Source of the DNA: a bacterium
Lineage (GTDB): Bacteria; Margulisbacteria; Marinamargulisbacteria; JAAEMD01
Direction: 5' to 3'
Length of the DNA stretch: 34,606 nucleotides
NCBI GenBank assembly: GCA_024225875.1
Contig: JAAEMD010000027.1
Coordinates: 1-34,606, forward strand
Shown here: one piece after another, positions 1 to 26,410 of the stretch
Position numbering within the stretch: position 1 is the first letter of the stretch
Layout: each line of letters begins with the position of its first letter
Notes under the pieces: model-generated
The model's database searches: none
The model's input: the letters and a program-made list of their open reading frames with translations, nothing else
What the model was told of the DNA's origin: nothing
Translations under genes and position numbers: made by a program

Positions 1-20
1 AAAACACTTTTTTATTTTTT

Positions 21-1800: not shown

Positions 1801-2598
1801 ATGATTTCACAGCTTCATATGGCCAAAACGACACTGATTGCATTTCAACAGAGTATGCAGGTTGTCGCTAATAATGTAGCCAATGCTCAAACCCCTGGTT
1901 ATAAGGGGCGTAGAATGGAATTCGAAACAATGTATCCCTTAACGTTCCAGCGTGCTATTACCGAGTTTGAAGAAGCTGCAGGCGGCCCAAGAAACAAGAG
2001 GCGTAAAGTTATGGAATACGGACAGGGTGTACGAATCGCTGCTGTTTCCAAGAACTTTGTTCAGGGAGCTATTGAAATCACTAACCAGCCATATGATATG
2101 GCTATTAGTGGACATGGTCTATTTCAGTTCCGTATGGCAGACGGAAGCATTGCTTACGGACGTGCAGGTAATTTACACCTGGATAGAGAAGGTAACTTTC
2201 TTAACAATAACGGACAACCGCTGGAACCTGCGGTAAGGGTTCCTGACGGAGCAACAGACATTATTGTGAACGACCAGGGCAGAGTATTTGTACAGGTAGG
2301 AACAGATTCTGCTCCAAGAGAAATCGGGCAGATTATTCTTGCACAGTTTCAAAATCCGGCAGGATTAAAAGAAATCGGACAAAATTTATATTTAGAAACA
2401 GATGCATCAGGCCCACCAAGACTTGAAAACCCAGGTAAGAATGGAGTTGGGAGTATTCAACACAAAGCGCTGGAATTTTCTAATGTAAATATCATAGATG
2501 AAATGATGTCTATGGTAATGATCCAGAGAATATTCGATGTTGCTGTCAAAGCTGTAAAAGCTACTGATGAGATTCTAAAAAAAGGTGGCGGATTTTAA
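1801..2598 (+). CDS. flgG: Flagellar distal rod protein FlgG
   Basis: N-terminal motif NNVANAQTPGYKGRR and C-terminal LEFSNVNIIDEMMSMVMIQRIFD. The 265-aa length is typical of FlgG. AAGGAG lies 8 nt upstream of the ATG. Confidence 0.85.
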   Translation: MISQLHMAKTTLIAFQQSMQVVANNVANAQTPGYKGRRMEFETMYPLTFQRAITEFEEAAGGPRNKRRKVMEYGQGVRIAAVSKNFVQGAIEITNQPYDMAISGHGLFQFRMADGSIAYGRAGNLHLDREGNFLNNNGQPLEPAVRVPDGATDIIVNDQGRVFVQVGTDSAPREIGQIILAQFQNPAGLKEIGQNLYLETDASGPPRLENPGKNGVGSIQHKALEFSNVNIIDEMMSMVMIQRIFDVAVKAVKATDEILKKGGGF

Positions 2599-2631: not shown

Positions 2632-3357
2632 TTGCATAGCATATTTTCTACAATAATTATTATTATTTTCATATCTTCAGGTTTAGCTGCTGCAAAACCC
2701 GACAAAAGTGCTATTGCTGACTATATTAAAAAGCAGGTAATCAGGCAGGTTTTAGATAAAAACAGTCAATTTTCCAGCTCCGATATAAAAATAAGCATCC
2801 AGAACAAAGAAATATTAAAATATGTGCCAGAAAATACTGTAACCTGCAAACTGGATATAAGACCAAAAGCAAATTTACTGGGAAAAACTGTACTGCCTCT
2901 CTTATTTTACAGCCAAAAAAATAATTTACTCAAAAAAACAAGCGTTATTATTAATACTAATGCTTATACAAATTTTGCCAGAACTACAAAAACAATAAAG
3001 CGTGGTACAGTCTTATCCAGAGAACATATAGTATTTAAATACGAGCCCTTTTATGGAAAACCTGTTAACTGCCTTTTAAAAACAGAAGATATAATCGGTA
3101 AAGAAGCTTTTTCTACAATACCAAAAAATGCTTTAATAACAGAATGGCTCATCAGAGATATTCCTGACATAAGAAGTAATGATAAAATTACTATTGTCTT
3201 GAATAAAAACAATTTAGAACTCCGTGTAGGAGGTATTGCTCTGGAAAACGGTTATATAGGAGATAACATACGTATCAGAACTACTTTAAAAGAAAGAAAA
3301 TTATTAGAAGGTACAATAATAGCACCACAGTGTGTTAAGATTTTTATGGTAAACTAA
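2632..3357 (+). CDS. flgA: Flagellar P-ring assembly chaperone FlgA
   Basis: Sec signal peptide (IIIIIFISSGLAAA). SAF-like segment IKRGTVLSREHI and C-terminal DKITIV...LELRVGGIALENGYIGDNIRIR pattern. It sits between flgG and flgH. TTG start with no clear SD. Confidence 0.7.
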   Translation: MHSIFSTIIIIIFISSGLAAAKPDKSAIADYIKKQVIRQVLDKNSQFSSSDIKISIQNKEILKYVPENTVTCKLDIRPKANLLGKTVLPLLFYSQKNNLLKKTSVIINTNAYTNFARTTKTIKRGTVLSREHIVFKYEPFYGKPVNCLLKTEDIIGKEAFSTIPKNALITEWLIRDIPDIRSNDKITIVLNKNNLELRVGGIALENGYIGDNIRIRTTLKERKLLEGTIIAPQCVKIFMVN

Positions 3358-3366
3358 TATCATATT

Positions 3367-3984
3367 ATGAAAAAAACAATATTTATTTTTTTACTGGCCC
3401 TCATATTTTCAGTTTATACAGTAAACTGCATAACTGCGGATTCTCTCTGGCACCAATCCCAGGGAGCTATGTACAGCACCCATAAAAAAGAAGTTCGTGT
3501 AGGAGACATTATAACCATTTATATTTCAGAAAGTTCTTCTGCAGTCCAGGAAGCATCAACAAGAACACAAAAACAGTCACAAATGTCATCAAACTTCTTA
3601 AGCAACTGGGATCAGATAGCAAATATACTGGGTAATGATACAATAAGAAAAAGACATGAACTGGACATACAGGGTGAAGATGAGTACCAGGGTCTTGGAC
3701 AAACGACCAGAAAAAGCAGTGTTAAAGCTGTTATATCTGCAATCGTAACTGAGATTCTTGATAGCGGCAATATCTATATAGTCGGTGAACATAAGGTAAA
3801 AGTAAATGACGAGGTAGAAACAATAAGAGTGTCCGGAATTATCCGTCCCGGCGATATTCAATCAAACAACAGCGTTTATTCCTATCAAATTGCTAAAGCT
3901 GAAGTCTCTGTAAACGGGGCTGGGGTTGTGGGTTCCAAGCAAACGCCTGGCATATTAACTAAAATGTTTAACTGGTTATTTTAA
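3367..3984 (+). CDS. flgH: Flagellar L-ring protein FlgH
   Basis: Signal peptide ending in Cys (YTVNC). Core motifs VGDIITIYISE and IVGEHKVKVNDEVETIRVSGIIRPGDI are typical of FlgH. Confidence 0.85.
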   Translation: MKKTIFIFLLALIFSVYTVNCITADSLWHQSQGAMYSTHKKEVRVGDIITIYISESSSAVQEASTRTQKQSQMSSNFLSNWDQIANILGNDTIRKRHELDIQGEDEYQGLGQTTRKSSVKAVISAIVTEILDSGNIYIVGEHKVKVNDEVETIRVSGIIRPGDIQSNNSVYSYQIAKAEVSVNGAGVVGSKQTPGILTKMFNWLF

Positions 3985-3986: not shown

Positions 3987-5108
3987 ATGAGAAAAACTAC
4001 GTCTTTATTTTTATTAAAATTCCTGATCCTGTTAAACACTGTTTTATCAGGCCAGGATCTATCACCAGAGTCCACAACACAGTACCTGCCTGTCAGACTT
4101 AAAGATCTCGCCAGGATAGTAGAAGCCAGAGATAACCAGCTGCTGGGATTTGGCCTGGTTGTTGGATTACGTAACAGCGGTGATTCCAAAAACACTTCTT
4201 ACACGCATGCAGCATTAATAAATCTCCTTTCAAAACTGGGAGTTTCCCCGGGCAGCAGCCCTGATAACTCCAGAAACATTGCAGGTGTTATGGTCACAGC
4301 AACACTTCCACCATTCACAAAAAAAGGACAACGAATCACTGTAACAGTATCCTCTTTAGGAGACTGCACAAGTTTAGTCGGGGGAACTCTGTTATTAACT
4401 GAACTGAAAGGTGCGAATTTAAGGACATACGCCGTTGCTCAGGGGCCGATTCTGGTTGGAGGTATTTCTGAAAACACTGAAAACTACAAATTCTATAAGA
4501 ATCAAACAACTGTAGGAAGTGTCCCGGATGGAGGTATAGTGGAAAACGAGGTACCAATAACTTTCACAGATCAGCATAATATTACAATAGTACTTAACGA
4601 CTCCAACTTTATAACTGTGGCTCGTGCAACCAAAGCTATTCAACAAAGCAACTTCCCCAGTGCAAGAGCTATTGATGCAAATACAATAAAAATCCCGCTC
4701 ACAGATCTTGATTCAAGTGATCTGGTTAATACAATTGCAAAACTGGAAAATATTACGCTCGTACCTGACTCATCTGCGAAAATTATTATTAACTCCAAGA
4801 CAGGTACAGTAGTTATTGGAGAAATGGTACGGTTATTCCCTGTTGCACTGACACATGGAAATATTTCAGTAAAAATAAGCGAAGGATCTGGTGCTGGTAA
4901 TACACAGGCCGAGTTAGGTGCAGAAGTACTGGAGCCAGTACAAATAGAAGAAACTGAAAGCAAAATTATTTATCTGAGTCCCAGCTCAACATTATCCAGC
5001 CTTGTTAACGCCTTAAATGAAATTGGAGCAACACCGAAAGACCTGATTTCAATTATTCAAGCATTAAAAGAATCAGGCTCACTAATAGCAACGGTGGAAA
5101 TAATATGA
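3987..5108 (+). CDS. flgI: Flagellar P-ring protein FlgI
   Basis: Signal peptide followed by RLKDLARIVEARDNQLLGFGLVVGLRNSGDS, the hallmark FlgI N-terminus. Length 373 aa. Confidence 0.9.
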   Translation: MRKTTSLFLLKFLILLNTVLSGQDLSPESTTQYLPVRLKDLARIVEARDNQLLGFGLVVGLRNSGDSKNTSYTHAALINLLSKLGVSPGSSPDNSRNIAGVMVTATLPPFTKKGQRITVTVSSLGDCTSLVGGTLLLTELKGANLRTYAVAQGPILVGGISENTENYKFYKNQTTVGSVPDGGIVENEVPITFTDQHNITIVLNDSNFITVARATKAIQQSNFPSARAIDANTIKIPLTDLDSSDLVNTIAKLENITLVPDSSAKIIINSKTGTVVIGEMVRLFPVALTHGNISVKISEGSGAGNTQAELGAEVLEPVQIEETESKIIYLSPSSTLSSLVNALNEIGATPKDLISIIQALKESGSLIATVEII

Positions 5109-5494
5109 CAAATAAATACCTTTCATTTTTTATTTTTTTTATTAAAATATTATTAGCAGCCAATTTATCTGCTCAACAATTTGGAGGTTTAAGCGACTTG
5201 GATATATACAGACAATCAAAAAACTCAAATACCAATTATCGTCAAATGCCACCTGAAAAAATTCTGGAAAAAACAGAGGCCCATTTTATAAAAGAAATGT
5301 TCTTAAAAACAATATTCCAGATGAATAAAACAACTATGGGGTCAGATGAAAATGATCAGTTTTTTGCTGCTAATTCTGAATTAGTTAATGAGTTTTTGAT
5401 GGATGAGCTGGCTAAAGATCTTGCTGAGCAGGATATTTTAGGGTTTAAAAAAGCTTTTTTAAAAAGATATAAAAATAGAGAGTCAGCAAAATAA
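5105..5494 (+). CDS. Rod-binding protein (FlgJ N-terminal domain-like, no muramidase domain)
   Basis: EAHFIKEMFLKTIFQM and ...LAEQDILGFKKAFLKRY resemble the Rod_binding (FlgJ N-terminal) pattern FE..F...ML..M ... G.A. The ATGA overlap with the flgI stop suggests translational coupling. The N-terminus looks like a Sec signal (LLAANLSA/QQ). Confidence 0.6.
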   Translation: MTNKYLSFFIFFIKILLAANLSAQQFGGLSDLDIYRQSKNSNTNYRQMPPEKILEKTEAHFIKEMFLKTIFQMNKTTMGSDENDQFFAANSELVNEFLMDELAKDLAEQDILGFKKAFLKRYKNRESAK

Positions 5495-5522: not shown

Positions 5523-6269
5523 GTGAAAAAAGAAAGTGTAAATTTAGATATAAAAAAACTACAACAAACAGAAGCTCTGAGTGTGAAGGAAAATGACGTC
5601 ATTCCTGAAGAGGTTGTTGCTGAAAATATGTCTCTTGTAGAGTCAATAGCAGCTTCCATTTATGGCAGAGGCGCTCTGCCTACAGGAATAGAGTTCCGTG
5701 ATTTAGTAAGCTGGGGGGTAGAAGGCCTTATTAAGGCCTATAAAAGATTTGATGCTGAAAAAGGTTCTAAATTTAAAACTTATGCTTACTATCGTATCAG
5801 AGGTGAAATTTTCGACAATATAAGATCTGAATGGCAATACAGAAACCCCAGTGATTACAATGAGTTTCGACGCCATGTCCAGGAAAAAATTGCCGAGATA
5901 ACTGAAGAGGCGCTAAATAATCCCAATACTTTTTCAGCCGATTCACTTGAAGATTCAATAAATAATATAATTGCAAACTCATCTTTTGTTTGTATAATTT
6001 CTCTTGAGAGCTTAGGCGATACTGAGGCAGGTGTATCAGATGACCTGGAACAAGATTTTTTCACTTCTGAAAAAGAAAATATTTTATGGAATGAGATAAA
6101 CAGTTTATCCAGAGAAGAACAGATATTAATAAAATTATTTTATTTAGAAAATGTAAAACAAAAGGAAATTGCAAAAATATTAAAATGGTCCAAGAGTAAA
6201 GTTTGCCGGGCTCATATGAACATATTAAAAAAGTTGAGAAACAAAATCCAGAAAAAGCTGAAGGACTGA
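5523..6269 (+). CDS. fliA: Flagellar sigma factor FliA (sigma-28 family)
   Basis: Sigma-70 region 2 (FKTYAYYRIRGEIFDNIR) and a region 4 helix-turn-helix (QKEIAKILKWSKSKVCRAHMNILKKLR). About 248 aa, which is group-3 sigma size. It is embedded in the flagellar cluster. GTG start with AAAGGA upstream. Confidence 0.8.
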   Translation: MKKESVNLDIKKLQQTEALSVKENDVIPEEVVAENMSLVESIAASIYGRGALPTGIEFRDLVSWGVEGLIKAYKRFDAEKGSKFKTYAYYRIRGEIFDNIRSEWQYRNPSDYNEFRRHVQEKIAEITEEALNNPNTFSADSLEDSINNIIANSSFVCIISLESLGDTEAGVSDDLEQDFFTSEKENILWNEINSLSREEQILIKLFYLENVKQKEIAKILKWSKSKVCRAHMNILKKLRNKIQKKLKD

Positions 6270-6533
6270 TCAATCCCCACACATCATTTGCAAATTTTTG
6301 AAAAATATTTTTTATCTTATGCTTTTTGCAAATAGTATTGATTTCATTAATGGCGCTGTCGAAAAACTACCTTCTTCAAAAACCGAAGAAAATGGTTTAG
6401 AAAAACAGGGGCTTAAAATGACCGTTAGCGGCAATATCAATGCTAATGAATCGTCCGAAGACACTTCAAAAAACACCAATTTTGAAAATCAGTCTATTTT
6501 GCGACAGTCCCATATTGTATAATACCCGACCCT

Positions 6534-6562
6534 TTGGCTAACATATCAAAATGCTGTATAAT
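6534..6562 (+). promoter_or_regulatory. Candidate sigma-70-type promoter for flgB (TTGGCT-17 nt-TATAAT)
   Basis: TTGGCT at 6534-6539, a 17-nt spacer, then TATAAT at 6557-6562 preceded by TG. ATG 6570 lies 7 nt after the -10 box and has no SD, which is compatible with a leaderless transcript. Motif-only call. Confidence 0.3.
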
Positions 6563-6569
6563 ATTTTAT

Positions 6570-6998
6570 ATGTTGAAAACAAAATTTTATTTTATTTTTG
6601 TAATATTTTTCATTATTTCTATATCTTTTAATAATTTTTCTCTTGCCCAGAACACATTTACACCATCATCTGAAACTAATTTTGCTGAAAACATCCTTTT
6701 TGATGATACAATGTCCAACCTGAAAAAGGCTATTCTCCATGCCAGCAAAAAACAGTCTCTCTATGCTTACAATATATCAAATGCTACAACACCTGAGTTT
6801 AACCCTGTTCTAGAACAGGATGAATACAGACAGCTGGCAAGCATACTGCCTCCTGGCGAAGAAAATAACAGAAAAGTAATGATGGAGTTTATTTTGACTA
6901 AAATGTCAGAAAACAGATTAAAATATAATGCCTACTTCAGCTTACAGAAAAAAAAGTTTGAAATTCTCAGGCAGGTAGCCACACAAGGGAAAAAATAA
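6570..6998 (+). CDS. flgB: Flagellar proximal rod protein FlgB (with N-terminal hydrophobic extension)
   Basis: SLYAYNISNATTPEF matches the FlgB N-motif (NIAN..TPGY), and the C-terminal MSENRLKYNAYFSLQKKKFEILRQV matches the FlgB tail. The start is placed at the first in-frame ATG (6570). The track ORF opens at TTG 6534, and an internal ATG at 6711 is the alternative. Confidence 0.75.
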   Translation: MLKTKFYFIFVIFFIISISFNNFSLAQNTFTPSSETNFAENILFDDTMSNLKKAILHASKKQSLYAYNISNATTPEFNPVLEQDEYRQLASILPPGEENNRKVMMEFILTKMSENRLKYNAYFSLQKKKFEILRQVATQGKK

Positions 6999-6999: not shown

Positions 7000-7467
7000 A
7001 TGATAAATATAAAGAAGTTAGTTTTACTATTATTAGTTTTTACTTTATCTACCATCATAACAAGTCAAATTTACTCACAGGGCCTTGTGGATAGTTTTGA
7101 TATTACTACCTCAGGTATAATTGTCCAGAAAATGAGATTGAATGTCATTGCTGAAAACGTTGCTAACATTACAACACTAAGAGATGAAGAAACCGGAGTC
7201 CCCTACCAGAAAAGATTTGTCGTACTACGTCCATCAGAAAAAGGTGTTCAAATCGAAAGCATTGAAAAAAGCACAGAACCTTTTGGTAAATACTTTGATC
7301 CTTCATACCCTGGAACAGATTCAGACGGATATTATTATTATCCAAATATCAGCCTTCCTGATGAGATGGTTAATCTGAATTATACTGAAATGGTATATGA
7401 AGCTAATGTATCTGTGTTTAAATCATCAAAAGCAATGTATCAGCAAGCATTAGACATAATAAAATAG
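7000..7467 (+). CDS. flgC: Flagellar proximal rod protein FlgC (with N-terminal hydrophobic extension)
   Basis: SFDITTSGIIVQKMRLNVIAENVANITT equals the canonical FlgC N-terminus. C-terminal motif LPDEMVNLNYTEMVYEANVSVFKSSKAMYQQALDI. ATG 7000 lies 1 nt after the flgB stop. An alternative GTG at 7087 would give a canonical-length protein. Confidence 0.8.
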   Translation: MINIKKLVLLLLVFTLSTIITSQIYSQGLVDSFDITTSGIIVQKMRLNVIAENVANITTLRDEETGVPYQKRFVVLRPSEKGVQIESIEKSTEPFGKYFDPSYPGTDSDGYYYYPNISLPDEMVNLNYTEMVYEANVSVFKSSKAMYQQALDIIK

Positions 7468-7476: not shown

Positions 7477-8235
7477 ATGTCATCTTTAAAAAACATGGAA
7501 TCAATTAATACTATCAAAAAAATTATTAATTCGGATAAATCATCACTAAAAAATAATACTGCAGCTACTGCCACTCCATTTAATACCTTTCTGGACAATG
7601 CTATTAACCCCAGTAAGCAGAACTCATTACTAAATTCTAATATCCTGGCTCCTGATAAATATACACAGGTACAGCAGGCTGCTAACTTTGCACAGGCCAT
7701 AGCTAAAGATGAGCTGGACAAAAAATATAAAAAAATAATTAAAGAAACAGATGATCTTCTGGCTCAAATCATACCAGATCAAGAGATCAGCAAAAACCCT
7801 TCTACTCAAATTGCACAGGCTTTTCCAAATAACCCGGATATAACTCCTTTTACAAGAGCCACAGACATCTCTGAAGATTTAGTCGCTCAAGCGTTCCCAG
7901 ATCCTGCAACAACAACAAGAAGAGCCCCTCTGCAGCCAAGAGTACCTTTAGAGGAACTAACAGCAGAGAATGTTAACATAGCTACTCCCGGCACAAATAA
8001 ACTTGATACAACACCTTTCCAGTTTTTTATGGATAAAGCTGTTGAAGCCCTGGAAGGAGTTAGTGAAATAGAATTAAGGGTAAACGATTTAATGGATAAG
8101 TATATAGAAGGAAAGGTTTCAATTGAAGAAGTATCTATTGAAACTGCTAAGCTGACACTCGCTATTTCTTTTGCTACAACTGTAATAACACAAACAACTC
8201 AAACATTTAAGGAAATTCAAGGAATGCAGGTATAA
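7477..8235 (+). CDS. fliE: Flagellar hook-basal body protein FliE (long N-terminal extension)
   Basis: The last 85 aa or so (FQFFMDKAVEALEGVSEIE...TFKEIQGMQV) match the FliE domain, including the characteristic ...MQV C-terminus. At 252 aa it is about 2.5 times the usual FliE length. Confidence 0.7.
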   Translation: MSSLKNMESINTIKKIINSDKSSLKNNTAATATPFNTFLDNAINPSKQNSLLNSNILAPDKYTQVQQAANFAQAIAKDELDKKYKKIIKETDDLLAQIIPDQEISKNPSTQIAQAFPNNPDITPFTRATDISEDLVAQAFPDPATTTRRAPLQPRVPLEELTAENVNIATPGTNKLDTTPFQFFMDKAVEALEGVSEIELRVNDLMDKYIEGKVSIEEVSIETAKLTLAISFATTVITQTTQTFKEIQGMQV

Positions 8236-8283: not shown

Positions 8284-9894
8284 ATGGCAGAAATAGATTT
8301 TGAAGCAGAAGATGATTACGAAAATGATCCAGAAGAAGATTTATATGGAGATAGTGAATCAGATAATTTTTCTAATGCAGATAATGATATAGACAGTAAT
8401 ACATCCGAAAGTTTATTTTCACGTCGCCGCATAATAGTTGTACTTTCTATTATTGGCGTTGTTTTTTTAGTCAGCTTTTTTCTTTTCGGCATCAGAAATA
8501 ATAAAAATAAACCAGGTAAAAATGCTTCATTCAGCTCTGGGTATACTTCTTTAGATACTAAGCCTGAAAAAAAGAGTAAAAAGAAAAAGAAGCGTATTAA
8601 GTTTGAAAAACTATATGACTTAACATCACTCCAGCTCCCTGATGTTTTAAGAGAGCTGAGTTTAGCAGGCATAGCATTCAAAACAGAGCAGAAAGGAAAA
8701 AACTATTCTATATCAGTAGATAGCAGTCAATCAGAAAAAGCAAAGAACCTTCTTGCTGTAAAAGGGCTGCCATCAAGTGGCGCCAGAGGTTATCAGCTTT
8801 TAGATAAATCCCAAACTCTGGGAGTTACTGAATTTGACAAAAGAATTAGATTTTTAAGGGCACTTTCGGAAGAGCTTGAAAAAGCAATAATGCAGTTCGA
8901 TGCTATTGATAGTTGTAAAGTACAAATTGTTATACCGGAACAACGGCTTTTTGCAGTTACTCAACCACCTGTAACATCCTCTATTCTATTAAGGAAAACT
9001 ACTTCTGCAAAATTAACAGATGAACTGGTATTTAGTGTAATTGAACTGGTATCTAATGCAGTCGAAAACCTCCAGCCTGAAAACATATCAGTAATTGATA
9101 CGGAAGGTCATGTTTTATCTAAAGGTCTCTTAGAAAGAATGTCTAAAACAGACCGTATTAGAAGAAGACAGAAGGCAGAACAAAAAAAAGTAATAATACA
9201 GGCAAAAAAACTACCAAAAGTAGGTCAGCCGATTATTCCTGATTTCAATAGAATAAAACACTGGTATGAAGTAAAAAAACAGTTTGAGGAGTCTCTTGAA
9301 GATAAAGCTGGTAAACAGCTGACCGGCATTCTACCTGTTGGTAGTTTTAAAATCGCTATTACAGCAGATATCGGGCCTCTGGAGGAAGGTAAAATAGTCG
9401 ATATAAAACGCCTTTCAGCAAGTGTTGTAGTTGATAATGCGAACGATGATATAGAACTGGATACATCAACAAAAACTCAAATATATAATACTATCGCAGC
9501 CTCTATCGGTTATATTAAAAAAAGAGACTCCATACGACTAAGCAAAGCTAACTTTTCTCTGCTTTCACAGGATGAAAAAGATGATCTAGTCAAAAAACAA
9601 AAGCATAAAAGGCTTCTAAAGTTAATATCAAAATACAGCAGCATAGCACTTCTAGCAATTATAGTTCTCGGTATTATTATTTTTATTTACAGGAAAATAA
9701 AAAAGAAAAAAGAAACTTCTGCACCAATAATGTCCAGTGAATCACGCGAAACTGATTTTTCTGATATCCAGGATGAAATCAGTAGTGATAAAAAACTGGA
9801 AGAAATAAAATATTATACATTATCTAACCCGGACATAATCGCGCAGATAATGGAAGAGTGGCTTACAAGTGCAAAAGAGGAGGTTTTTCAATAA
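8284..9894 (+). CDS. fliF: Flagellar MS-ring protein FliF
   Basis: N-terminal TM helix, then a YscJ/FliF-type periplasmic region (LSLAGIAFK..., GLPSSGARGYQLLDKSQTLGVTEFDKRIRFLRALSEELEKAIMQFDAIDSCKVQIVIPE). A second TM helix sits near the C-terminus. It precedes fliG with a TAATG overlap. Confidence 0.8.
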   Translation: MAEIDFEAEDDYENDPEEDLYGDSESDNFSNADNDIDSNTSESLFSRRRIIVVLSIIGVVFLVSFFLFGIRNNKNKPGKNASFSSGYTSLDTKPEKKSKKKKKRIKFEKLYDLTSLQLPDVLRELSLAGIAFKTEQKGKNYSISVDSSQSEKAKNLLAVKGLPSSGARGYQLLDKSQTLGVTEFDKRIRFLRALSEELEKAIMQFDAIDSCKVQIVIPEQRLFAVTQPPVTSSILLRKTTSAKLTDELVFSVIELVSNAVENLQPENISVIDTEGHVLSKGLLERMSKTDRIRRRQKAEQKKVIIQAKKLPKVGQPIIPDFNRIKHWYEVKKQFEESLEDKAGKQLTGILPVGSFKIAITADIGPLEEGKIVDIKRLSASVVVDNANDDIELDTSTKTQIYNTIAASIGYIKKRDSIRLSKANFSLLSQDEKDDLVKKQKHKRLLKLISKYSSIALLAIIVLGIIIFIYRKIKKKKETSAPIMSSESRETDFSDIQDEISSDKKLEEIKYYTLSNPDIIAQIMEEWLTSAKEEVFQ

Positions 9895-10982
9895 TGTTAA
9901 CAGGTAAAGAAAAAGCTCAGATTCTACTTGCTTTATTAGAAGATCAAGCTCAAAACGTTTTAGCTAAACTATCACCTGAAAGTTCCGCCTTATTAACTTC
10001 CTCCATAGAAGACGCTCCTAAACCAGACCCTGCTGATCTTAATATTTTATTTTCAGAAGTACTGACAAAAGTTGATGAAATAAAAAGTAAATCTCTACTG
10101 GACGCACCAGATAATGAAGAGCATCTTGAAAGTATAGATAAAACAACTGGAGAAGAAAGTCTATTATATAGTGATGATGAAAATAAAGAAGGCGAGATAA
10201 GCAATAAAGATATAACAGATGCAGGAGAAAGTGATAGCCTTATAGAAGATCCCGAAGATAATTCGGAAGAAGAGCCACCTCAGCGGGATATATCAGAAAT
10301 AGCAGATATCCTGTCAAGACAAAAGCCGCAGATTATAGCTTTTTTCCTGGCTAAAGTTGATGATGAAATGCGTGTCCGGCTGATAGAACATCTACCAAAA
10401 AAAATACGCTCTCAAATAGAAAGCCATGAAATAGAGCCCATACCAATCTCAGACAGTGTTTTTAAAAATCTATACGAAAGCATACTAAAAAGTGCTGAAC
10501 CAAAAACTGATGACCAGGAAGCTGATAAAATCAAAGAAGCAGAAGAAGGCTCCTTTTCAGACCATACGTTAGTATCTGAAACTTCTTCTTTCTCAGATAA
10601 AAGTGACTTTGAGGATGATCTATCTGATCATTTACAAGACAACAGCACATCTGCAATACCGGAAAATGATGCTGATATCGATTCTTTATCCAGTGACTTT
10701 ATTCAAAACCAGGACCAGGTTTTAAACACAGCAGAAGAATCTGAAAACTTATCCAGCTCAATAGTAGATCTGGATTCAGAATTAACACCTGAAGAGTTTA
10801 ACGAAAATAGTCTGGATGATTATGATATCATTCCTGATGAACAGGAAACAAAAGGTACGACTGAAGATGATATTATATCTTTAGACTCTCAGGACGAAGA
10901 TATTATACAGGAAAATGATATCTTTGAAGAAGATCTTGAAGACGCAATAGACCTGGAAAACTCTGATAATCTCTCATTTTAA
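9894..10982 (+). CDS. FliG-like protein: FliG N-terminal domain plus the first part of the middle domain, then an acidic low-complexity tail (no recognisable C-terminal torque domain)
   Basis: LTGKEKAQILLALLEDQAQNVLAKLSPE aligns with the FliG N-terminus. ISEIADILSRQKPQIIAFFLAKVDDEMRVRLIEHLPKKIRSQI aligns with the EHPQ-containing segment of the FliG middle domain. The start is set at ATG 9894 (TAATG overlap with fliF, AGAGGAGG upstream) rather than the track start 9858. Confidence 0.65.
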   Translation: MLTGKEKAQILLALLEDQAQNVLAKLSPESSALLTSSIEDAPKPDPADLNILFSEVLTKVDEIKSKSLLDAPDNEEHLESIDKTTGEESLLYSDDENKEGEISNKDITDAGESDSLIEDPEDNSEEEPPQRDISEIADILSRQKPQIIAFFLAKVDDEMRVRLIEHLPKKIRSQIESHEIEPIPISDSVFKNLYESILKSAEPKTDDQEADKIKEAEEGSFSDHTLVSETSSFSDKSDFEDDLSDHLQDNSTSAIPENDADIDSLSSDFIQNQDQVLNTAEESENLSSSIVDLDSELTPEEFNENSLDDYDIIPDEQETKGTTEDDIISLDSQDEDIIQENDIFEEDLEDAIDLENSDNLSF

Positions 10983-11014: not shown

Positions 11015-11127
11015 TAGCTGGTACAAATTGAAATGTCCGTTTAAATGTCTGAGTGCTGTGTACTTGCGTACATAAACGAAGTCATTTAAAAACTTTAAGT
11101 GTCAGAGATTTTATTTTGGATCAGCTA
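11015..11127 (+). repeat. Family-A palindromic MITE-like repeat, copy 1 (113 bp)
   Basis: TAGCTGGTACAAATTGAAATGTCCGTTTAAAT...TTTTGGATCAGCTA. It is near-identical to the copies at 28445, 28756, 28868 and 31419. TA flanks both ends. It lies between the convergent fliG and lnt genes. Confidence 0.9.
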
Positions 11128-12631
11128 TATGATCTGACAATAATAAAGAATATATTATTAATATAATGGATATATAAACAAATATATTGCCAGTGATACT
11201 ATATAAGCTCTTATTATCACGTATTAAAAAACTTTCATTTATGATACCTTTTTTATTCAACTGCATTTTAGCTATTACTTTTCCCTTATTAGAAACCAGA
11301 CCTGATATGCCCGTATTCGAAACCTGTATCATAAACCGATCATTTTCTACTGCTCTTAATATACTCATCTGGAAAAGCTCTTCTGCGGCTATAGACCCAA
11401 AAAACCATGCATTATTAGCAAGGAAACATAAAATATCAGCTCCTTTGTTTACACCTTTTCTACTAATTTCAGGATAAATTGATTCCAGGCAAATACCCCC
11501 AGCTACTTTTAATTCTTTTACTGACAGGCACATTGGTTCATTTCCCCTTTCATAGTCTGATGTAACAAGGTCTTCATCAAAAAATTTTATAATATTTTTT
11601 GCCGGCCAGTATTCCCCGAATGGCATCAATCTAGTCTTTTTATAGTACTTTAAATTTATACCTTTATCATCAATAACAACTGCAGCATTATAATATTTAC
11701 CATCCTCATGTACAGGAGTTCCAAATATTATTGATATCTTATATTTATCAGCGATCCATTTAAGCTTACGAATAAATTCCGTACTTTCCAGATTAAAGAC
11801 CGGGGTGATCGTTTCCGGCCAGATTACAATATCAGGCTGGCCCTTAACTGCCTCAAGGGTCATATTTATATAGTCCTGCCGTATTAACGGCCAGTATTTT
11901 TTTTGCATTTTTTTTGACTGCTCATGGTTTGCCTGGATAATTGCTGCCTTTACTTCTTTATAGTCTTTACTTATAGCCGCCATGTTATCTTCTTTAGAAA
12001 GCTGTCGCCATCCAGATAAAAAAACAATAGTGCTTACTAACATTAAAATTATAAAATGCTTTTTTATCTCCTGGCCGCTTATCAGCTTCCATAACAAAAC
12101 ATTACATAAAACAATAAAAAAAGATAATCCATACAGCCCAAAACCAGAAGCTGTCTGCAGTACTGGTAAAAAAGAAGACTGCGAGTACCCCAGTGCACCG
12201 GCAGAGCTTCCCACAGGACCTGCTGTTCTTAACCATTCAGCAAATATCCAGCAGGCAGGAAAGAGGTAAATATCAGGAATTGAGTTCCTGCCCCAGGCAT
12301 ATAAAAACATCGCTGTCCCATAAAAAAGTGCATAGAATAAAGAAGCTGCAACCCATAAAATCACAACATAATACCAGGCTGCCCATGCCTGCAGCTCCAG
12401 CATCCATCTATGAAAATAGAGCATTATTATAAAGCCATAAACTAACCCTCTAAAAAAAAACTTTCTTCTTATACCTGACTTTGCGTACCTCTGATTAGAA
12501 TCTGCTGCTTTATTCAAATCAAACAGCAGTGGTATTAGACATATATATGCTATAAAAAATAAGTTAACTCCAGGGAAAATCAGACACGTCAGAAGTGCCG
12601 AAATAACTGTTATAATATTCTTACCTCCCAT
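11111..12631 (-). CDS. lnt: Apolipoprotein N-acyltransferase Lnt
   Basis: Multi-TM N-terminal half plus a C-terminal CN-hydrolase domain with WPE (IVIWPETITP), K (YYKKTRLMPFGEY) and C (GGICLESIYPE) triad contexts. The last 5 codons and the stop lie inside repeat copy 1. Confidence 0.85.
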   Translation of the reverse strand: MGGKNIITVISALLTCLIFPGVNLFFIAYICLIPLLFDLNKAADSNQRYAKSGIRRKFFFRGLVYGFIIMLYFHRWMLELQAWAAWYYVVILWVAASLFYALFYGTAMFLYAWGRNSIPDIYLFPACWIFAEWLRTAGPVGSSAGALGYSQSSFLPVLQTASGFGLYGLSFFIVLCNVLLWKLISGQEIKKHFIILMLVSTIVFLSGWRQLSKEDNMAAISKDYKEVKAAIIQANHEQSKKMQKKYWPLIRQDYINMTLEAVKGQPDIVIWPETITPVFNLESTEFIRKLKWIADKYKISIIFGTPVHEDGKYYNAAVVIDDKGINLKYYKKTRLMPFGEYWPAKNIIKFFDEDLVTSDYERGNEPMCLSVKELKVAGGICLESIYPEISRKGVNKGADILCFLANNAWFFGSIAAEELFQMSILRAVENDRFMIQVSNTGISGLVSNKGKVIAKMQLNKKGIINESFLIRDNKSLYSITGNIFVYISIILIIYSLLLSDHIADPK

Positions 12632-13380
12632 GACACAATATTAGCTGATTCATCTGCCTTGCCACTTTGGGAATCCGTCTTATTAACTCTTTCTTTTCCT
12701 GCTTTCAAGTCAATATTTGCTTCAGATAAATCATATAAAACATCCTGTAGATAGCCTGTTTCCAGGTTTTTAGTCTCATCTTTTTTACAAGTAATAAAAG
12801 CAAAATATAAAGTTTTATTATTATCTAATATATCCTGGCTGTTAAATACCAGGGTTATTGTTTTGCCGTTTACATTAAAGTCAAAATCAAATTTCTGTTC
12901 CGGCGGATAGTTTGCTAAATGATTATTAGCAGATGTTGCTTTATCAAAAGCTTCAGCACCTGATTTATAAAGCACAGCACCCTGATCAGAACAGATAATA
13001 TAATCAGACCAGGAAGAAAAATAGGTCCTGTAAAAATAGTTTACTCCCTCTTTAAGCGTTAAATCATAATTAAATTCATCATATGCTCTACCCGGGAAAG
13101 GAAAGTATTCCTGCTGTGCTATTACATTTAATGATGGAACCACCGGGCTACCAGACACTGAAAAAACAATATAATAATCATAATGGTCCAGATCAACATT
13201 ACCTGACATCGTTAACTTCATTTCCATTCTTAAGATTGTCGATTTATCACTAACAGTCCTTGCACAACTTAATAATAACAACATCCCGGTAATAATAAGG
13301 CTTCTGAAAAGATATATTCTCCCTTTGCACCAAAACTGTTCAAAATTCAATCTGTTAAAACCTCTCTGCTGATGCATCAT
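12610..13380 (-). CDS. Hypothetical lipoprotein (operonic with lptD and lnt)
   Basis: Signal peptide with lipobox LLLSC. Its start overlaps the lptD stop and its stop overlaps the lnt start. I recognise no family motif. Confidence 0.6.
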   Translation of the reverse strand: MMHQQRGFNRLNFEQFWCKGRIYLFRSLIITGMLLLLSCARTVSDKSTILRMEMKLTMSGNVDLDHYDYYIVFSVSGSPVVPSLNVIAQQEYFPFPGRAYDEFNYDLTLKEGVNYFYRTYFSSWSDYIICSDQGAVLYKSGAEAFDKATSANNHLANYPPEQKFDFDFNVNGKTITLVFNSQDILDNNKTLYFAFITCKKDETKNLETGYLQDVLYDLSEANIDLKAGKERVNKTDSQSGKADESANIVSWEVRIL

Positions 13381-15904
13381 CCAGAACTCCTTCTATTTTG
13401 GATATTTCCTTATTCTTGACATAACCTATACTATCTTCAGGAAAAGCCAGAACTGTTACCTTAAAACGGATTTCCTCTCTATTCATATCATAGGTAAATT
13501 GAAATCTCCTGCAATGATCATTCTTAATTATAGAATAGTTTTGTAACTCGTAACGATTAGCTCGAATTGTCTGCATCTGACCATTATAATTCATATATTG
13601 ATAATATGCCTCTATCTCCCACCGGTTGTCCTGGTCTCCACCAAAATTAAAATTCACCTTTAAACTGGAATCTCTAATCGAAGCCAGCTCACCTTTATCA
13701 TTTCTAAAATTATCGTTATGAAAAATATTAAAACTAAATTCTAAATTTTCCAATGGTGCTAATTGAATATCAATAATCCGGGGCTTATGTTTTGCTCCTT
13801 CAAATCCTGAACCGTTAAAATTTATTCCATAAGTCATATTAAATTTAAATATTTTATTTGGATTAATAAGCAGAGTAACACTATGATCATTACGTTCACC
13901 TGTTAAAAGGTTATAACCTCCGGTATGCTGCCATTTATATTTAGATTCACTATCCCAGTAAAAAGTTATTACCTCTGTAAAAGAGTCAGTATCCGAACGT
14001 TTCTCACTATCAAAACGGAAAAAAGGTGAATTAGAACGGTTATTATTATTTTCTTCATCATTAGGACTAAAACCGCGATTAAAAATTGTACTTGTTTTAA
14101 AAAAACCAAGGTCCATAGTATGATCGACTTTAAAGTTATACTTATATAAAGCATCCCCTTCAAATAATGAGTAACCGGCGTTTTTAAAAATATACTGATC
14201 ATAACTGGCCGATAAAAAAAGGCTGGAATCAGCAGGCAAATCTGAAAACCGCTTGTTCAGCGACTGTTTAAAAATATATGTATTCGGCTCTACTCCAAAA
14301 TCTTCCGGCTCCGGAAAAAAGCGGGCTTTACCAGTTCCATTATCATATTGCACTTCCTGGTACCTTGCTATTGTAATTTTTTCAGTTAAACTGATCCCGG
14401 CAAAAAGTTTATCATTATAATTTATATTAAACTCCGGCTGTTTGAAAAGATAATCATTTTTAGAATCATATTTTGACCTTTCTTTAGCTTCCAGATCAAA
14501 AGTATGGTCTATCACCAGATTTACGTTCAGATTATTCCAGATTTCCCTGGAAAAAATTGTAGAAGTATCAAGTCTGTAGTCATTAATACCAGAGGCTGTC
14601 TGCTCCTTATTAAAATCCAGGTCGTTAGACATTTTTATATCATCAGGCAGAAAAACACTTTGTTTTAATGTTGACCTGATATTTTTTCTCTTACTGGAAG
14701 CATAGTCTTCCTTAACTAAATTAAAGCTGTATAAGTCATCGCCATTAAATGATCTGGTTAATTTCAAACTATTCTTTTTATAGTTCTGTCTAAAATCTTC
14801 CTTAGAATATGCACTTAAATCATATTTATCGCCCAGATTATCATATTTAACATTAAAAACACTTTCTTCTACTTTCTTTCTACCACTGGAATTAATAAGT
14901 TCAGCATCAATATTAGTGTACTTTAAATCTAAAGATAAATTATTATCAAACTGCCAGCTTTGCTCCCAGTTCCTTTTGATATTTGGTATTTCATTGTGAT
15001 AAGGAACCAGCTGATAAAAATACATTTGTCCCCGGTTATCAAACAGCTTATACTGATGTTTTATACCTAAACCGGGCCGCCAGTTAGTTTCTTCTATGAT
15101 TGTATTTCCCTCTATCCTGCTCTTTTTAAATTCAAAAAAATCCAGATACAGACTTGAATCTTCACCATCTATATTGTCATAATCAATTGTATTTTGCATA
15201 AACCAGCCCCAGCCAGCTGTTTTCTTCTCTCCTATGGTAGGATTACGCCAGACAATCCTGCGTTTTCCCAGCTCATAAAAATAAACAGGGGTCCAAAAAG
15301 CAAAAGGTACAAATAAAACAGGATTATATATAAATACATTATAACCAATTAACCTTTGATCAGGATAATATTCAAAATACTGCGCCCAGACAAAATAATG
15401 ACGGGACTTATGACTACAACTGGTAAAAAAACCGTTACTGCCACTTTTCATTTTTCCTGTATCATCTAATTTTGAGGCAGAAAGAAAAAGAGGTTTTTCG
15501 TTTTTTTCAGCAGGCACGACCTTAATATTAATATCCTTAAGCTTTACCACTTCTTCATTTAAATCAAAATACAGATAGCTGGAATAAAACTCATCATCAC
15601 CACGTCTAATCCTGATATTACCAGTACCCCAGACATGATTAGATGCCGTGTCTAAACACAACTTTTGGGCCTGCACTTCTATATCACCATATATCAAACG
15701 GACATTTGATGATGCTATCAGGTTATGTGTATCTTCCTGACAATAAATATGATCAGCTGACAATTTAACTTTTTCTTGTGAAAACAGGCCGGAAGCCTGA
15801 CAGGTAATAATAAAGTAAAAACAAAGTACAACAGCTGTATATAAACCTCTTTTTTTAAAAGGATTAACAGTATTTTCTGTATTTTTCAAAAAGCTTTTTT
15901 TCAA
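13355..15904 (-). CDS. lptD: LPS-assembly outer membrane protein LptD (OstA family)
   Basis: Signal peptide, then an OstA-like N-terminal beta-jellyroll segment (LSADHIYCQEDTHNLIASSNVRLIYGDIEVQAQKL...GNIRIRRGDDEF). A long Y/F/N/D-rich beta-barrel-like C-terminal part ends in a C-terminal Phe. Length 849 aa. Confidence 0.75.
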   Translation of the reverse strand: MKKSFLKNTENTVNPFKKRGLYTAVVLCFYFIITCQASGLFSQEKVKLSADHIYCQEDTHNLIASSNVRLIYGDIEVQAQKLCLDTASNHVWGTGNIRIRRGDDEFYSSYLYFDLNEEVVKLKDINIKVVPAEKNEKPLFLSASKLDDTGKMKSGSNGFFTSCSHKSRHYFVWAQYFEYYPDQRLIGYNVFIYNPVLFVPFAFWTPVYFYELGKRRIVWRNPTIGEKKTAGWGWFMQNTIDYDNIDGEDSSLYLDFFEFKKSRIEGNTIIEETNWRPGLGIKHQYKLFDNRGQMYFYQLVPYHNEIPNIKRNWEQSWQFDNNLSLDLKYTNIDAELINSSGRKKVEESVFNVKYDNLGDKYDLSAYSKEDFRQNYKKNSLKLTRSFNGDDLYSFNLVKEDYASSKRKNIRSTLKQSVFLPDDIKMSNDLDFNKEQTASGINDYRLDTSTIFSREIWNNLNVNLVIDHTFDLEAKERSKYDSKNDYLFKQPEFNINYNDKLFAGISLTEKITIARYQEVQYDNGTGKARFFPEPEDFGVEPNTYIFKQSLNKRFSDLPADSSLFLSASYDQYIFKNAGYSLFEGDALYKYNFKVDHTMDLGFFKTSTIFNRGFSPNDEENNNNRSNSPFFRFDSEKRSDTDSFTEVITFYWDSESKYKWQHTGGYNLLTGERNDHSVTLLINPNKIFKFNMTYGINFNGSGFEGAKHKPRIIDIQLAPLENLEFSFNIFHNDNFRNDKGELASIRDSSLKVNFNFGGDQDNRWEIEAYYQYMNYNGQMQTIRANRYELQNYSIIKNDHCRRFQFTYDMNREEIRFKVTVLAFPEDSIGYVKNKEISKIEGVLDDASAERF

Positions 15905-18330
15905 GAATCCCCATTTAAAAAATCATAAAGCTGCAAATTAAAGTCATTAGACCAGTAATTAAACGTCAGACCCTCAGACAGTAAGTGACCCAAACGCCGC
16001 TGAATAAAGTAGAATAAGGTACCTGTTGACATTGAAGACTGCCAGTAATCAAACGCTCTTTTCAGATCTTTCATAAAAAAATATATATCCCCGATATTTA
16101 ATTTTGCTAAATGATTCTGTGGATTTATTGATAATGCTTTTAAAAAATGTTCTTTTGCAAGGTCATAGTTTTTCTGAACAAGAAAAACTAATCCCAAATT
16201 CAAATAAACCAGATCTAAATTCTTATTTAATTCTTCAGCCTTCCGCAAATGATCTATGGCCTGACCGGTTTCTTCTTTTAAAAGACTTAGAATTGATAAG
16301 TTACAGTACGCAACTGTAAAATCAGGTTCCATTTGAACTGCTAAATTAAATTCATCCTCTGCGGCCTTTATATGTTTCTTGATAAGATACTCTACCCCAC
16401 GATTATTATGTGGATAAGCAAAGCTCACATATTGAGTATCTGGCTGCTTTTTCTTTAATAAAGAGGCTTTTTCCATGTTTGGAACTGAAAGCACGGATAC
16501 AGACCTATTATCATTGCTCCACAAACAACCGGACAGAGCCTTACCGCTAAATGTTAAAACACTTTGCTGCTTATACCATTCCAGCAGTCCTCTTATATTA
16601 GGGAAGTTGACATCATCTTCCATTATTGACTCCAGATAGCTTATTGCTTCGGCAATATCCCCCATATTAATATAATTTACACTTATAAAATAACGGATCG
16701 TATTACTGATATCTCTATCCTTTTTCTCTAAATGAGGTAATAGTCTCATCAACTGGTTTATTGATAAATCAAAGCGCCCCATTTCTAAAAAACACCGGCT
16801 TATCAGCATATAGGCCTTAAACCTCAAGTCAGCATTTACCGAAACTTTTTGAAAGTTTTCCAGAGCAGCAAACAGATCACCCTTCCTCAAATGAATAAGA
16901 CCAGAGTTAAATAATTTATTATGAGCATCCGGACTTCGAAAGCCCTGCTTTACATCCTTCTGTTCATCAATTATTTTTCTATGCAGCTCAACCAGGTTTT
17001 GATATATATCCCAGTTATATTTATTGCCCTGAAAAACACTTAAAAGTATCTTTTTGCTTTTGACCAGGTTACCGGCATCTTTTTCAACATCAGCCTGTAT
17101 ACATTTAGCCTGATTTTCATAATCAGTACCAGTTAAAACAGCACATTCAGCAAGACATTTTTTATGTTCTTTCTTATAAAAAAAATGCTTTGCCAGTAAA
17201 TATCTGCACTTATTTTGTAAACTTTTGTCCATATTTAAGATACTCAATAAACGTTCCTGAACATTAATACTGCCGGAACTATCAAGAAAAACCATTTTCT
17301 CTATACAGTCCAGAGTTTCTGCGTAATCATGTTTTGAATAAAATATATCTGACAGTAACTGCCAGGCCAGTATTTGATCAGGATATCTTTCCAGTATCGT
17401 TTCTAGTAAATCCTTGATTAACTGATGATCAAATTCATTTTTCGAAATCAATATTTGAAGATAATTTACTCCTTCAGTATAACGAGAAGATTCAACCAGT
17501 ACTTCAGCCATGGCAAATATTACTTCGCTTGTATCAGGATAAAGTTCCAGTACATTTCGATATATATCAATTGCTTCAGGCTGTACTGAGCTATCCAGTT
17601 CCAGCATATGTTTCACAAAAAAGATACCTTTAGCAAAATCATAGATACTAAAATACATTTCAGCTAAAATCCTTCTAATCAAAATACTATTGGGACAGTA
17701 CTCAATAAGCTGTTCACATCTGCCTGCTATTCCATGGGTATCTTTAGGTAATAGTTTAGCTATTTGCTCATAAATTAATATTGCCTTTTCATATTGAGCT
17801 GCTTTTATATATAGTTCAGCCAGGGTACGCTGATATTTTATTGTTTGAGAATGTTTTTCTATTAACTCTTCATAAAAGCCTATGCTCTTATCCAGATCCT
17901 CTTCTTCCAGATAAATCCTTGGCAATAAGTCAATAATAACTGAATCCATGATATCTTTTTTAAAAGCATTTTCAAATATATACTTTATCCTGTCTTTCTG
18001 ACCATTTTTACTGTATATCTTACTTAATAAAAAATATACCTGTGTAAATTTATAATCAATCTCAAAAACTTCTTCTAATTCATTAACAGCTTCTTTATAG
18101 TCGCCATCACATATATATAACTCTGCAATTAACAATCTAATATTCAAGTTATGGTAATTTGCAGCTAACTGCCTGTATAACGGAATCAGTATGTCAGGCA
18201 ACACCCTTCTGTTATGTTTTATAAGATTTTTAAAACGGTCCAGAGCATCATAGTACTGTTTTCTCTTAACCAGCGATATGGCCAGGTTGTATTCAGATTT
18301 TTTCTTAAGAGCAGTTCCCCATTCTCGCAT
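15901..18330 (-). CDS. TPR repeat-containing protein (809 aa, no signal peptide seen)
   Basis: Many 34-aa TPR-like repeats (for example AELYICDGDYKEAVNELEEVFEIDYKF, LGLVFLVQKNYDLAKEHFLKALSINPQNHLA). ATGA overlap with the lptD start. Confidence 0.7.
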   Translation of the reverse strand: MREWGTALKKKSEYNLAISLVKRKQYYDALDRFKNLIKHNRRVLPDILIPLYRQLAANYHNLNIRLLIAELYICDGDYKEAVNELEEVFEIDYKFTQVYFLLSKIYSKNGQKDRIKYIFENAFKKDIMDSVIIDLLPRIYLEEEDLDKSIGFYEELIEKHSQTIKYQRTLAELYIKAAQYEKAILIYEQIAKLLPKDTHGIAGRCEQLIEYCPNSILIRRILAEMYFSIYDFAKGIFFVKHMLELDSSVQPEAIDIYRNVLELYPDTSEVIFAMAEVLVESSRYTEGVNYLQILISKNEFDHQLIKDLLETILERYPDQILAWQLLSDIFYSKHDYAETLDCIEKMVFLDSSGSINVQERLLSILNMDKSLQNKCRYLLAKHFFYKKEHKKCLAECAVLTGTDYENQAKCIQADVEKDAGNLVKSKKILLSVFQGNKYNWDIYQNLVELHRKIIDEQKDVKQGFRSPDAHNKLFNSGLIHLRKGDLFAALENFQKVSVNADLRFKAYMLISRCFLEMGRFDLSINQLMRLLPHLEKKDRDISNTIRYFISVNYINMGDIAEAISYLESIMEDDVNFPNIRGLLEWYKQQSVLTFSGKALSGCLWSNDNRSVSVLSVPNMEKASLLKKKQPDTQYVSFAYPHNNRGVEYLIKKHIKAAEDEFNLAVQMEPDFTVAYCNLSILSLLKEETGQAIDHLRKAEELNKNLDLVYLNLGLVFLVQKNYDLAKEHFLKALSINPQNHLAKLNIGDIYFFMKDLKRAFDYWQSSMSTGTLFYFIQRRLGHLLSEGLTFNYWSNDFNLQLYDFLNGDS

Positions 18331-18339
18331 AATACTTCT

Positions 18340-23515: not shown

Positions 23516-23553
23516 ATTTTCTCCTGTTTAAAACTCAATAAACTATTACCGGC

Positions 23554-26272: not shown

Positions 26273-26315
26273 AGTTTACCTCGCCTGTCTTTTTTATTCT
26301 TTACTAAACATAAAA

Positions 26316-26354
26316 GAACTCCCTCTGGCATATTTATAATACTAAAGGGAGTTC
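26316..26354 (-). terminator. Hairpin between acn and citD (possible weak terminator or attenuator)
   Basis: Perfect 9-bp stem GAACTCCCT/AGGGAGTTC with a 21-nt loop. On the minus strand it is followed by TTTTATGTT. The large loop and short T-run make it weak. Confidence 0.35.
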
Positions 26355-26410
26355 CATACAAACTATTTTTTTTATACCGCTTGTGTAACGCTTAACTTTA
26401 TCTATAGCTT

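Follow-up and report, generated by a model that had tools for sequence, protein, structure and literature searches.

A FliG homologue without the torque domain in Marinamargulisbacteria and a possible division of FliG functions over two proteins

Introduction

To our knowledge, FliG has been treated as a universal three-domain protein, a single polypeptide through which torque passes from the stator to the MS ring of the flagellar motor. Its C-terminal domain contacts MotA and is needed for rotation, and its N domain is bound by a motif at the C-terminus of FliF, as seen in the FliF_C:FliG_N co-crystal structures 5TDY and 5WUJ. The FliG paralogues of spirochaetes are both full-length soluble proteins with N, M, and C domains, Buchnera keeps a full-length FliG, and injectisomes have neither FliG nor L/P rings. 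Here, we analyze a stretch of 34,606 nucleotides (the window; GenBank assembly GCA_024225875.1, contig JAAEMD010000027.1, positions 1 to 34,606 of the forward strand) from a bacterium of the Marinamargulisbacteria. Nucleotides 3-10982 of its plus strand form one flagellar operon, and the last gene of this operon (9894..10982) encodes a 362-residue FliG homologue with N and M domains only, which we call the short FliG. Features of the operon given below are all on the plus strand.

A large and environmentally abundant lineage thus seems to break the rule of one FliG polypeptide, as its FliG has no torque domain and a floppy linker between the N and M domains, and at least some members have the M and C domains on a separate membrane anchor (FliG_MC) beside motAB. 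The lineage would offer a natural experiment on the transmission of torque, on the FliG contacts that cannot be dispensed with (among them the debated stacking of ARM_M on ARM_C), and on the simplification or repurposing of flagella, which parallels the origin of the injectisome. A published survey summed up the phylum as 'motile by polar flagella', and members of the protein family described here are annotated by NCBI and JGI as 'hypothetical protein'. A search of the literature found no account of a FliG family lacking the C domain, of a FliG with a transmembrane anchor, or, at the level of main texts, of Margulisbacteria flagellar genes.

Results and discussion

Domain content of the short FliG

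The short FliG consists of two FliG domains set in acidic, disordered sequence. Helices 1 to 3 of the FliG N domain (aa 1-62, 9894..10079), presumed to be the FliF-binding module, are followed by an acidic disordered linker (aa 63-129, 10080..10280; 36% D+E). This linker stands where canonical FliG has the latter half of FliG_N and the rigid N-M helix. A complete middle domain, ARM_M (aa 130-202, 10281..10499), comes next, and a polyacidic disordered tail of 160 residues (aa 203-362, 10500..10979) ends the protein. All orthologues begin MLxGKxKAQ, and the start codon is therefore the ATG at 9894, which overlaps the fliF stop codon, rather than an upstream GTG. Within aa 1-62, the pattern MLTGKEKAQ...LLT.SI was kept in every orthologue aligned.

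Several searches support these assignments. First, Pfam FliG_N matched aa 2-62 (profile positions 2-63 of 104) with 24.3 bits against a cut-off of 25, and Pfam FliG_M matched aa 135-175 with 25.8 bits, scores that are each borderline taken alone. Second, a profile of 13 orthologues compared with PDB sequences aligned to residues 4-157 of Salmonella FliG (E=1e-7), and of its 14 matches the top 13 were FliG. Third, AlphaFold2 (AF2) predicted two confident helical blocks, aa 4-68 (predicted local distance difference test score, pLDDT, 70-78; helices 4-25, 28-36, and 46-68) and aa 133-201 (pLDDT 84-90), with everything else below 50, including the linker (33-41) and nearly all of aa 206-345. Finally, Foldseek placed aa ~130-202 on isolated FliG_M domains (3soh_B, template-modelling score 0.68; 4qrm_D, 0.71; root-mean-square deviation 2.5-2.6 Å over 69-71 columns) and the N block on FliG_N of the FliF:FliG co-crystal (5tdy_D, 0.50). 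Based upon the extents of the Pfam, AF2, and Foldseek matches, ARM_M is complete and the N domain comprises its first three helices only. An earlier reading made from the sequence alone (the sequence-only reading) had assigned residues 1-60 to the FliG N domain and had placed a D/E/S-rich linker after it, and both assignments are borne out. The same reading saw only the start of a middle domain, with a QKPQ motif, at about residues 140-205; the domain and the motif stand, but the whole of ARM_M is present.

At the position of the EHPQ motif, the short FliG reads S-R-Q-K-P-Q (aa 141-146). Across orthologues, Q146 is invariant and P145 is mostly kept, E and H are not conserved, and there is no conserved arginine at the R160 position. 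Only the P-Q of canonical EHPQR is therefore retained.

The short FliG also differs from canonical FliG in having no helix MC, Gly-Gly linker, ARM_C, MFxF motif, or torque helix. In an HMM search that returned FliG_N and FliG_M, Pfam FliG_C (PF01706) gave no match at E<=0.1, and no NCBIfam model, including the TIGR00207 fliG equivalog, matched at the same threshold; neither MFxF nor GG was found in the protein. Beyond nt 10400, the other two plus-strand frames are full of stop codons, and the convergent lnt gene lies only 128 nt past the stop codon, so no C domain is hidden downstream. The lack of the torque-generating domain, of MFxF, of the Gly-Gly linker, and of the torque helix had all been noticed in the sequence-only reading and is upheld by these searches and by the disorder of residues 203-362. 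With no stator-contacting domain, the short FliG therefore cannot generate torque as canonical FliG does.

Conservation of the short FliG family

Three close homologues and eight loci in GTDB genomes have the same N+M architecture (178-381 aa), and all are without the C domain. The genomes of these relatives are titled Candidatus Margulisiibacteriota, Marinamargulisbacteria, or 'bacterium' metagenome-assembled genomes. A profile search found at least 187 clusters at 50% identity (E<=1e-3), and 127 of the 151 clusters examined have both N and M domains, with a median length of 200 aa and a linker of 10-106 aa. The window protein carries the family signature throughout: the MLxGKxKAQ start, a variable acidic linker, ARM_M with xPQxxAFxL and IPxSDxVF, an acidic tail with a hydrophobic tip, and a position as the last gene of the rod/ring operon.

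Gene order is equally constant. In 10 of 10 relatives examined, the order is a FliK-like gene, a gene for the FlhB C-terminal domain only, rod genes, FlgA, FlgH, FlgI, a FlgJ-like gene, FliA, FlgB, FlgC, FliE, FliF, and the short FliG, which directly follows fliF in each case, as canonical fliG does; lnt then follows in most. The short FliG is a real, widely conserved form and is the positional orthologue of fliG in a Margulisiibacteriota lineage.

These results bear on the possibility that the protein is an artefact, in which a frameshift, a misassembly, or the decay of a pseudogene has removed the true C-terminus or left it in another frame. Out-of-frame read-through could in principle yield a low-complexity tail, and a frameshift or assembly error had been named in advance as the alternative to check. 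The probability of an artefact is negligible, however, as the closed frames and the short gap to lnt effectively refute a frameshift or hidden C domain, the architecture without the C domain is found again in >100 clusters that are independent of one another and come from a variety of samples and assemblers, and the tip of the tail is under detectable constraint.

The acidic tail and its phenylalanine tip

The tail (aa 203-362) is 34% D+E with 5 K/R and a net charge of -49, in agreement with the ~160 residues of acidic low complexity described before, and the whole protein is 28% D+E compared with 5-17% in the other 27 open reading frames (ORFs) of the window. No tandem repeats were found in the DNA of the tail, and an origin by DNA repeat expansion was rejected for this reason. 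Pooled family tails are 32% D+E and 5% K+R, with a median length of 14 aa and a range of 0-169 aa; one orthologue, L007, is tailless. The 160-aa tail is therefore an expansion in some members only, and what orthologues share is its acidic character and Phe tip but not its length.

The C-terminal tip (...DNLSF, 10965..10979) belongs to a Phe/hydrophobic ending that is kept family-wide at any tail length, typical examples being ...NLSF, ISFD, LGFI, and VFFF. The last five residues of 71 tails contain 64 phenylalanines in all, compared with 20.4 ± 4.0 in within-tail shuffles, and none of 2000 shuffles reached as high a count. The tail would be an acidic tether, and its Phe-containing tip resembles a docking peptide for a putative partner. 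A possible analogue is FlgV, which has a disordered polar cytoplasmic tail that ends in a short conserved hydrophobic peptide (PMC11607428). Both would be flagellar proteins with a disordered tether of variable length and a conserved hydrophobic C-terminal tip, but the likeness is one of analogy only, as FlgV is an unrelated protein with two transmembrane segments and its tip has a basic residue, whereas the tip of the short FliG is acidic with Phe. The supplements of the FlgV paper contained nothing on Margulisbacteria.

The FliF partner

FliF of the window (536 aa, 8284..9894), the MS-ring protein, has an acidic N-terminal cytoplasmic extension and matches Pfam YscJ_FliF with 142 bits and Salmonella FliF with E=1e-33. 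Near its C-terminus, the motif NPDIIAQIMEEWL (aa 515-527, 9826..9864) is the counterpart of the canonical FliG_N-binding helix. In 7 orthologues the motif reads NPxxxAxxxExWL, with P516, A520, E524, W526, and L527 invariant. Retention of this motif, as in systems with canonical FliG, and the overlap of the short FliG gene with the fliF stop codon support the view that the short FliG is still built for sitting on FliF, insofar as sequence can tell. AF2 modeling of a concatenation of FliF_C and FliG_N without an alignment gave a pLDDT of 54.

A natural fusion bears on the division of labor within the short FliG. P0179 (729 aa, on a Logan contig of 12,366 bp) runs as FliF through its second transmembrane segment, continues as an acidic, Pro-rich linker, and then passes directly into ARM_M, with neither the FliF C-terminal motif nor the FliG N domain; it is known from a single contig and could be an assembly artefact. 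Because the fusion skips both halves of the FliF-FliG_N interface, it points to ARM_M as the functional end of the short FliG and to the N domain as a mere tether. Engineered or natural FliF-FliG fusions and deletion-fusions (for example the construct of PDB 8z4d) likewise show that FliG_N mainly tethers FliG to FliF, with P0179 as a natural FliF-linker-ARM_M counterpart. Those fusions keep FliG_C, however, whereas the short FliG family never has it.

At the start of the fliF gene (8284..8430), a conserved MAE precedes the acidic, D/E/S/N-rich cytoplasmic extension (aa 1-45), which is followed by the first transmembrane segment.

A membrane-anchored FliG_MC beside motAB

With FlhB_C-like proteins as anchors, we reached a second FliG-type gene in a sister clade of 43-47% GC. 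This clade comprises L014-L021 and L026 by GC content and a 168,390-bp contig by shared layout. An operon encoding a tetratricopeptide-repeat (TPR) protein, a protein of ~490 aa, MotA, and MotB occurs in L014 (1815..6280, minus strand), L019 (607..4696, plus strand), L026 (2249..6298, minus strand), and the 168-kb contig, and L015 has the same layout. In the sister clade, this operon lies ~6 kb from the cluster of rod, ring, FliF, and short-FliG genes.

The ~490-aa protein is FliG_MC. It has a predicted N-terminal signal or transmembrane segment, a periplasmic region of ~165 aa, a second predicted transmembrane segment, a Gly-rich linker, and complete FliG M and C domains. The 491-aa representative matched TIGR00207 over positions 104-329 of 338 (72.7 bits), Pfam FliG_C over positions 3-108 of 108 (69.7 bits), and T. 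maritima FliG_MC with E=5e-18. The adjacent MotA scored 176 bits against MotP/MotA/PomA-type models and MotB matched MotS/MotB models, which places both with flagellar stators. The periplasmic region gave no Pfam match even at E<=10, and its identification as a FliF homologue was rejected (hhalign probability 2%). A metagenome scan with FliG_MC returned only 4 close relatives (71-84% identity), none from the clade of the window.

Two features relate FliG_MC to the short FliG. First, the 168,390-bp contig carries the FliG_MC-motA-motB operon and, ~14 kb downstream, fliF, a 228-aa short FliG, and lnt, and thus both FliG fragments coexist in one genome. Second, at the EHPQ position FliG_MC reads ENVGPDN in the HMMER alignment, whereas the short FliG keeps P-Q there. 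As judged from these sequences, the two fragments look complementary, the short form providing FliF binding and P-Q and the long form ARM_C and the C-terminal bundle.

The sequence-only reading had proposed that the protein may cap the MS ring without supporting torque, in a structure that would be non-rotating or repurposed, or else that a second canonical fliG exists elsewhere. The absence of a stator domain and the retained FliF motif agree with the first proposal as far as the cap is concerned, but a missing C domain in the short FliG does not imply a non-rotating structure, because the sister clade has FliG_MC and motAB. As to the second, the sister clade does have another FliG-type gene, but it encodes FliG_MC and not a canonical FliG.

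The short FliG could still be an accessory paralogue that works beside a canonical full-length FliG encoded elsewhere, in the manner of the two FliGs of spirochaetes. The window spans only 34.6 kb of its genome, and Riflemargulisbacteria have a FliG scored 'reliable' and a full flagellar gene set in a published gene table (PMC6349859). Nevertheless, we regard an accessory role as quite improbable. The short FliG lies where fliG ancestrally follows fliF, its start codon overlapping the fliF stop codon; the one further FliG found in relatives has no N domain and thus no canonical means of binding FliF_C; and a FliG of canonical length was absent among the 150 matches listed in the profile search. 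The spirochaete systems resemble this one in having more than one FliG-type protein in one flagellar system, but here the proteins would be complementary fragments (N+M, and membrane-anchored M+C), only one of which can bind FliF.

A probable division of FliG functions over two proteins

We think it probable, with considerable room for doubt, that FliG functions are divided over two proteins, a short FliG tethered to FliF and a membrane-anchored torque half. This reading draws upon the domain content of both proteins, their conservation and gene order, and their co-occurrence on one sister-clade contig; for the window itself, we infer that the same genome also encodes a FliG_MC and that the short FliG contacts it.

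In the arrangement we envisage, the N-terminal helices of the short FliG would co-fold with the C-terminus of FliF, so that beneath the MS ring each FliF subunit would probably hold one copy. The intact ARM_M would hang from the ring on the disordered acidic linker, and the protein, which has no stator-binding domain, would end in an acidic tether whose Phe tip may dock a candidate partner. Membrane-anchored FliG_MC would form the stator-facing ring, and the short FliG would link that ring, a FliN-type platform, or both to the MS ring through ARM-ARM contacts or contacts between ARM_M and a partner.

Several observations weigh against a division of this kind. The interaction of the short FliG with FliG_MC is itself inferred, and a disordered N-M linker is a poor rigid transmitter of torque. 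At the positions of the classical torque-helix charges (E. coli R281, D288, D289, and R297), the HMMER alignment of FliG_MC shows N, Q, F, and A, and FliG_MC may for that reason contact the stator in a non-canonical way. In the clade of the window (34-38% GC; the window, L001, L008-L013, L022, and L027), FliG_MC-motAB was absent within 10 kb either side of the cluster in every contig walked, and no further flagellar genes were found in these flanks; the window has no FliG_MC-type gene within its 34.6 kb. In favor of the division, a published table scores K02410 (FliG) as 'check_length' in two Marinamargulisbacteria single-cell genomes (PMC6349859), a score that would be compatible with a putative 490-aa FliG_MC.

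That no low-GC contig shows FliG_MC or motAB in the 10 kb around the cluster also favors a different explanation, namely that the short FliG is the sole FliG of the organism in a reduced, non-rotating derivative of the flagellum (for example, a secretion or envelope-spanning structure), where it would cap the MS ring and recruit a FliN-type platform. Such a role would accord with the missing C domain. Support also comes from the KEGG table for three Marinamargulisbacteria single-cell genomes, which lists FlhA, FlhB, FliOPQR, FliN, FliF, rod proteins, L/P rings, and FlgE as present yet no FliM, FliH/I/J, FlgD, FlgK/L, FliD, FliL, FlhF/G, FlgM, or FlgN (Matheus Carnevali et al. 2019, PMC6349859, Supplementary Data). 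This gene list fits a reduced apparatus; MotA and MotB are not in the table. We nonetheless consider a sole, torque-less FliG unlikely, while giving it appreciable weight. First, the single-cell genomes have gaps and divergent proteins escape the KEGG models; FliK, FlgB, and FliE, all of which the cluster contains, are among those scored absent. Second, FliG is scored 'check_length', rather than absent, in two of the genomes. Third, the sister clade has a bona fide stator and FliG_MC together with the short FliG. Finally, FliA is retained in the operon. The KEGG table (PMC6349859) indicates a partial set of genes, with rod, rings, and export gate and few or no filament genes. In this respect the apparatus is similar to the injectisome and to reduced basal bodies that serve non-motility roles, such as those of Buchnera, but it differs in that a truncated FliG is kept here and relatives have motAB.

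The same table scores FliG, FliM, FlgK/L, FliD, and FliL as missing throughout the Saganbacteria column block (26 genomes, HO1A to RX8C; HO1A and LO2A are named as Saganbacteria by the paper), with the export gate, FliH/I/J, FliN, FliF, rod, L/P rings, and FlgE present (PMC6349859). The Saganbacteria genomes scored without FliG may carry the same unrecognized short FliG.

Predicted Sec signal peptides on rod proteins

Export of rod proteins normally proceeds by the type III route, and such proteins carry no signal peptide. Sec-type signal peptides are predicted, in the window and in orthologues, for FlgB, FlgC, the FlgJ-like protein, and the first rod protein (FlgF-like). Each leader has a basic n-region and 12-18 hydrophobic residues and ends at a cleavage site of the AQ/SQ/GQ type, with the canonical rod N-terminus immediately behind it (in FlgC, ...LLAQ/GLDDAFxISxSGIxVQK, with the slash at the cleavage site). 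The orthologues came from L001, L003, L006, L008, L010, and L011, with 4 to 6 loci per protein. A hydrophobic leader is carried by 28 of 33 orthologues of the first FlgF-like protein, and the NCBIfam FlgC model starts at aa 31 of the window FlgC; the two FlgG-like proteins and FliE are without such a leader. A literature search found no account of rod proteins with Sec signals. Textbooks hold that every axial protein is a type III substrate, a rule that these Sec signal peptides on proximal-rod proteins would break if they are functional.

A broader proposal combines these features. The motor of Marinamargulisbacteria and their relatives may be re-engineered in three respects. An N+M adaptor tethered to FliF and a transmembrane-anchored FliG_MC that engages MotAB would together replace the single FliG, there would be no FliM, and some rod components (FlgB, FlgC, the FlgF-like protein, and the FlgJ-like cap) would reach the periplasm through Sec rather than through the type III export gate. 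We offer this combination tentatively, as a possibility that we doubt more than we believe.

The flagellar operon and neighboring genes

The operon opens in the window with the FlgF-like rod protein (3/21..797, profile matches) and continues with two FlgG-like rod proteins (869..1684 and 1801..2598), FlgA (2632..3357), FlgH (3367..3984), FlgI (3987..5108), the FlgJ-like rod-binding protein (129 aa, 5105..5494), FliA (5523..6269), FlgB (6534..6998), FlgC (7000..7467), and FliE (252 aa, 7477..8235), ahead of FliF and the short FliG. The gap between fliA and flgB (6270..6533, 264 nt) contains only a 74-aa ORF (6298..6522), and the N-terminus of FliE makes that protein ~150 aa longer than usual. 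A search for an intrinsic terminator 3' of the short FliG gene found none. The convergent lnt gene for apolipoprotein N-acyltransferase (11111..12631, minus strand) marks the end of the operon in the window and in most relatives.

In relatives, the operon opens with a FliK-like protein with a Flg_hook domain and a protein of 114-158 aa that consists of the FlhB C-terminal domain only (L001 1..1354, L011 8234..9814, L025 137..1778). The latter is FlhX/YlqH-like and has no NPTH site. The window contig begins inside the first rod gene (1..21), and these two genes are therefore cut off. Among the 120 matches listed in a profile search with the FlhB_C-only protein, all were small orthologues and none formed a bridge to a full-length FlhB locus.

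Beyond lnt, the genes of the window are unrelated to flagella and include an Lpt permease, a citrate lyase operon, aconitase, and pta-ackA. The block at 11111..19464 (minus strand) comprises lnt, a 256-aa protein, an 849-aa protein without a Pfam match, an 809-aa TPR protein, and an LptF/G permease; the 256-aa protein has a lipoprotein-like N-terminal signal in relatives. Downstream of the flagellar operon, the window, the P0004 contig, L008, L009, and L010 share the gene order of this block, and L004 shares it in part. Further along (22178..28339, minus strand, and 29086..31357, plus strand) are a fused CitX-CitG, the citrate lyase alpha, beta, and acyl-carrier-protein subunits, aconitase, and pta-ackA. 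Taken together, these genes provide the organism, which is low in GC (35%), with a module for the fermentation of citrate to acetate.

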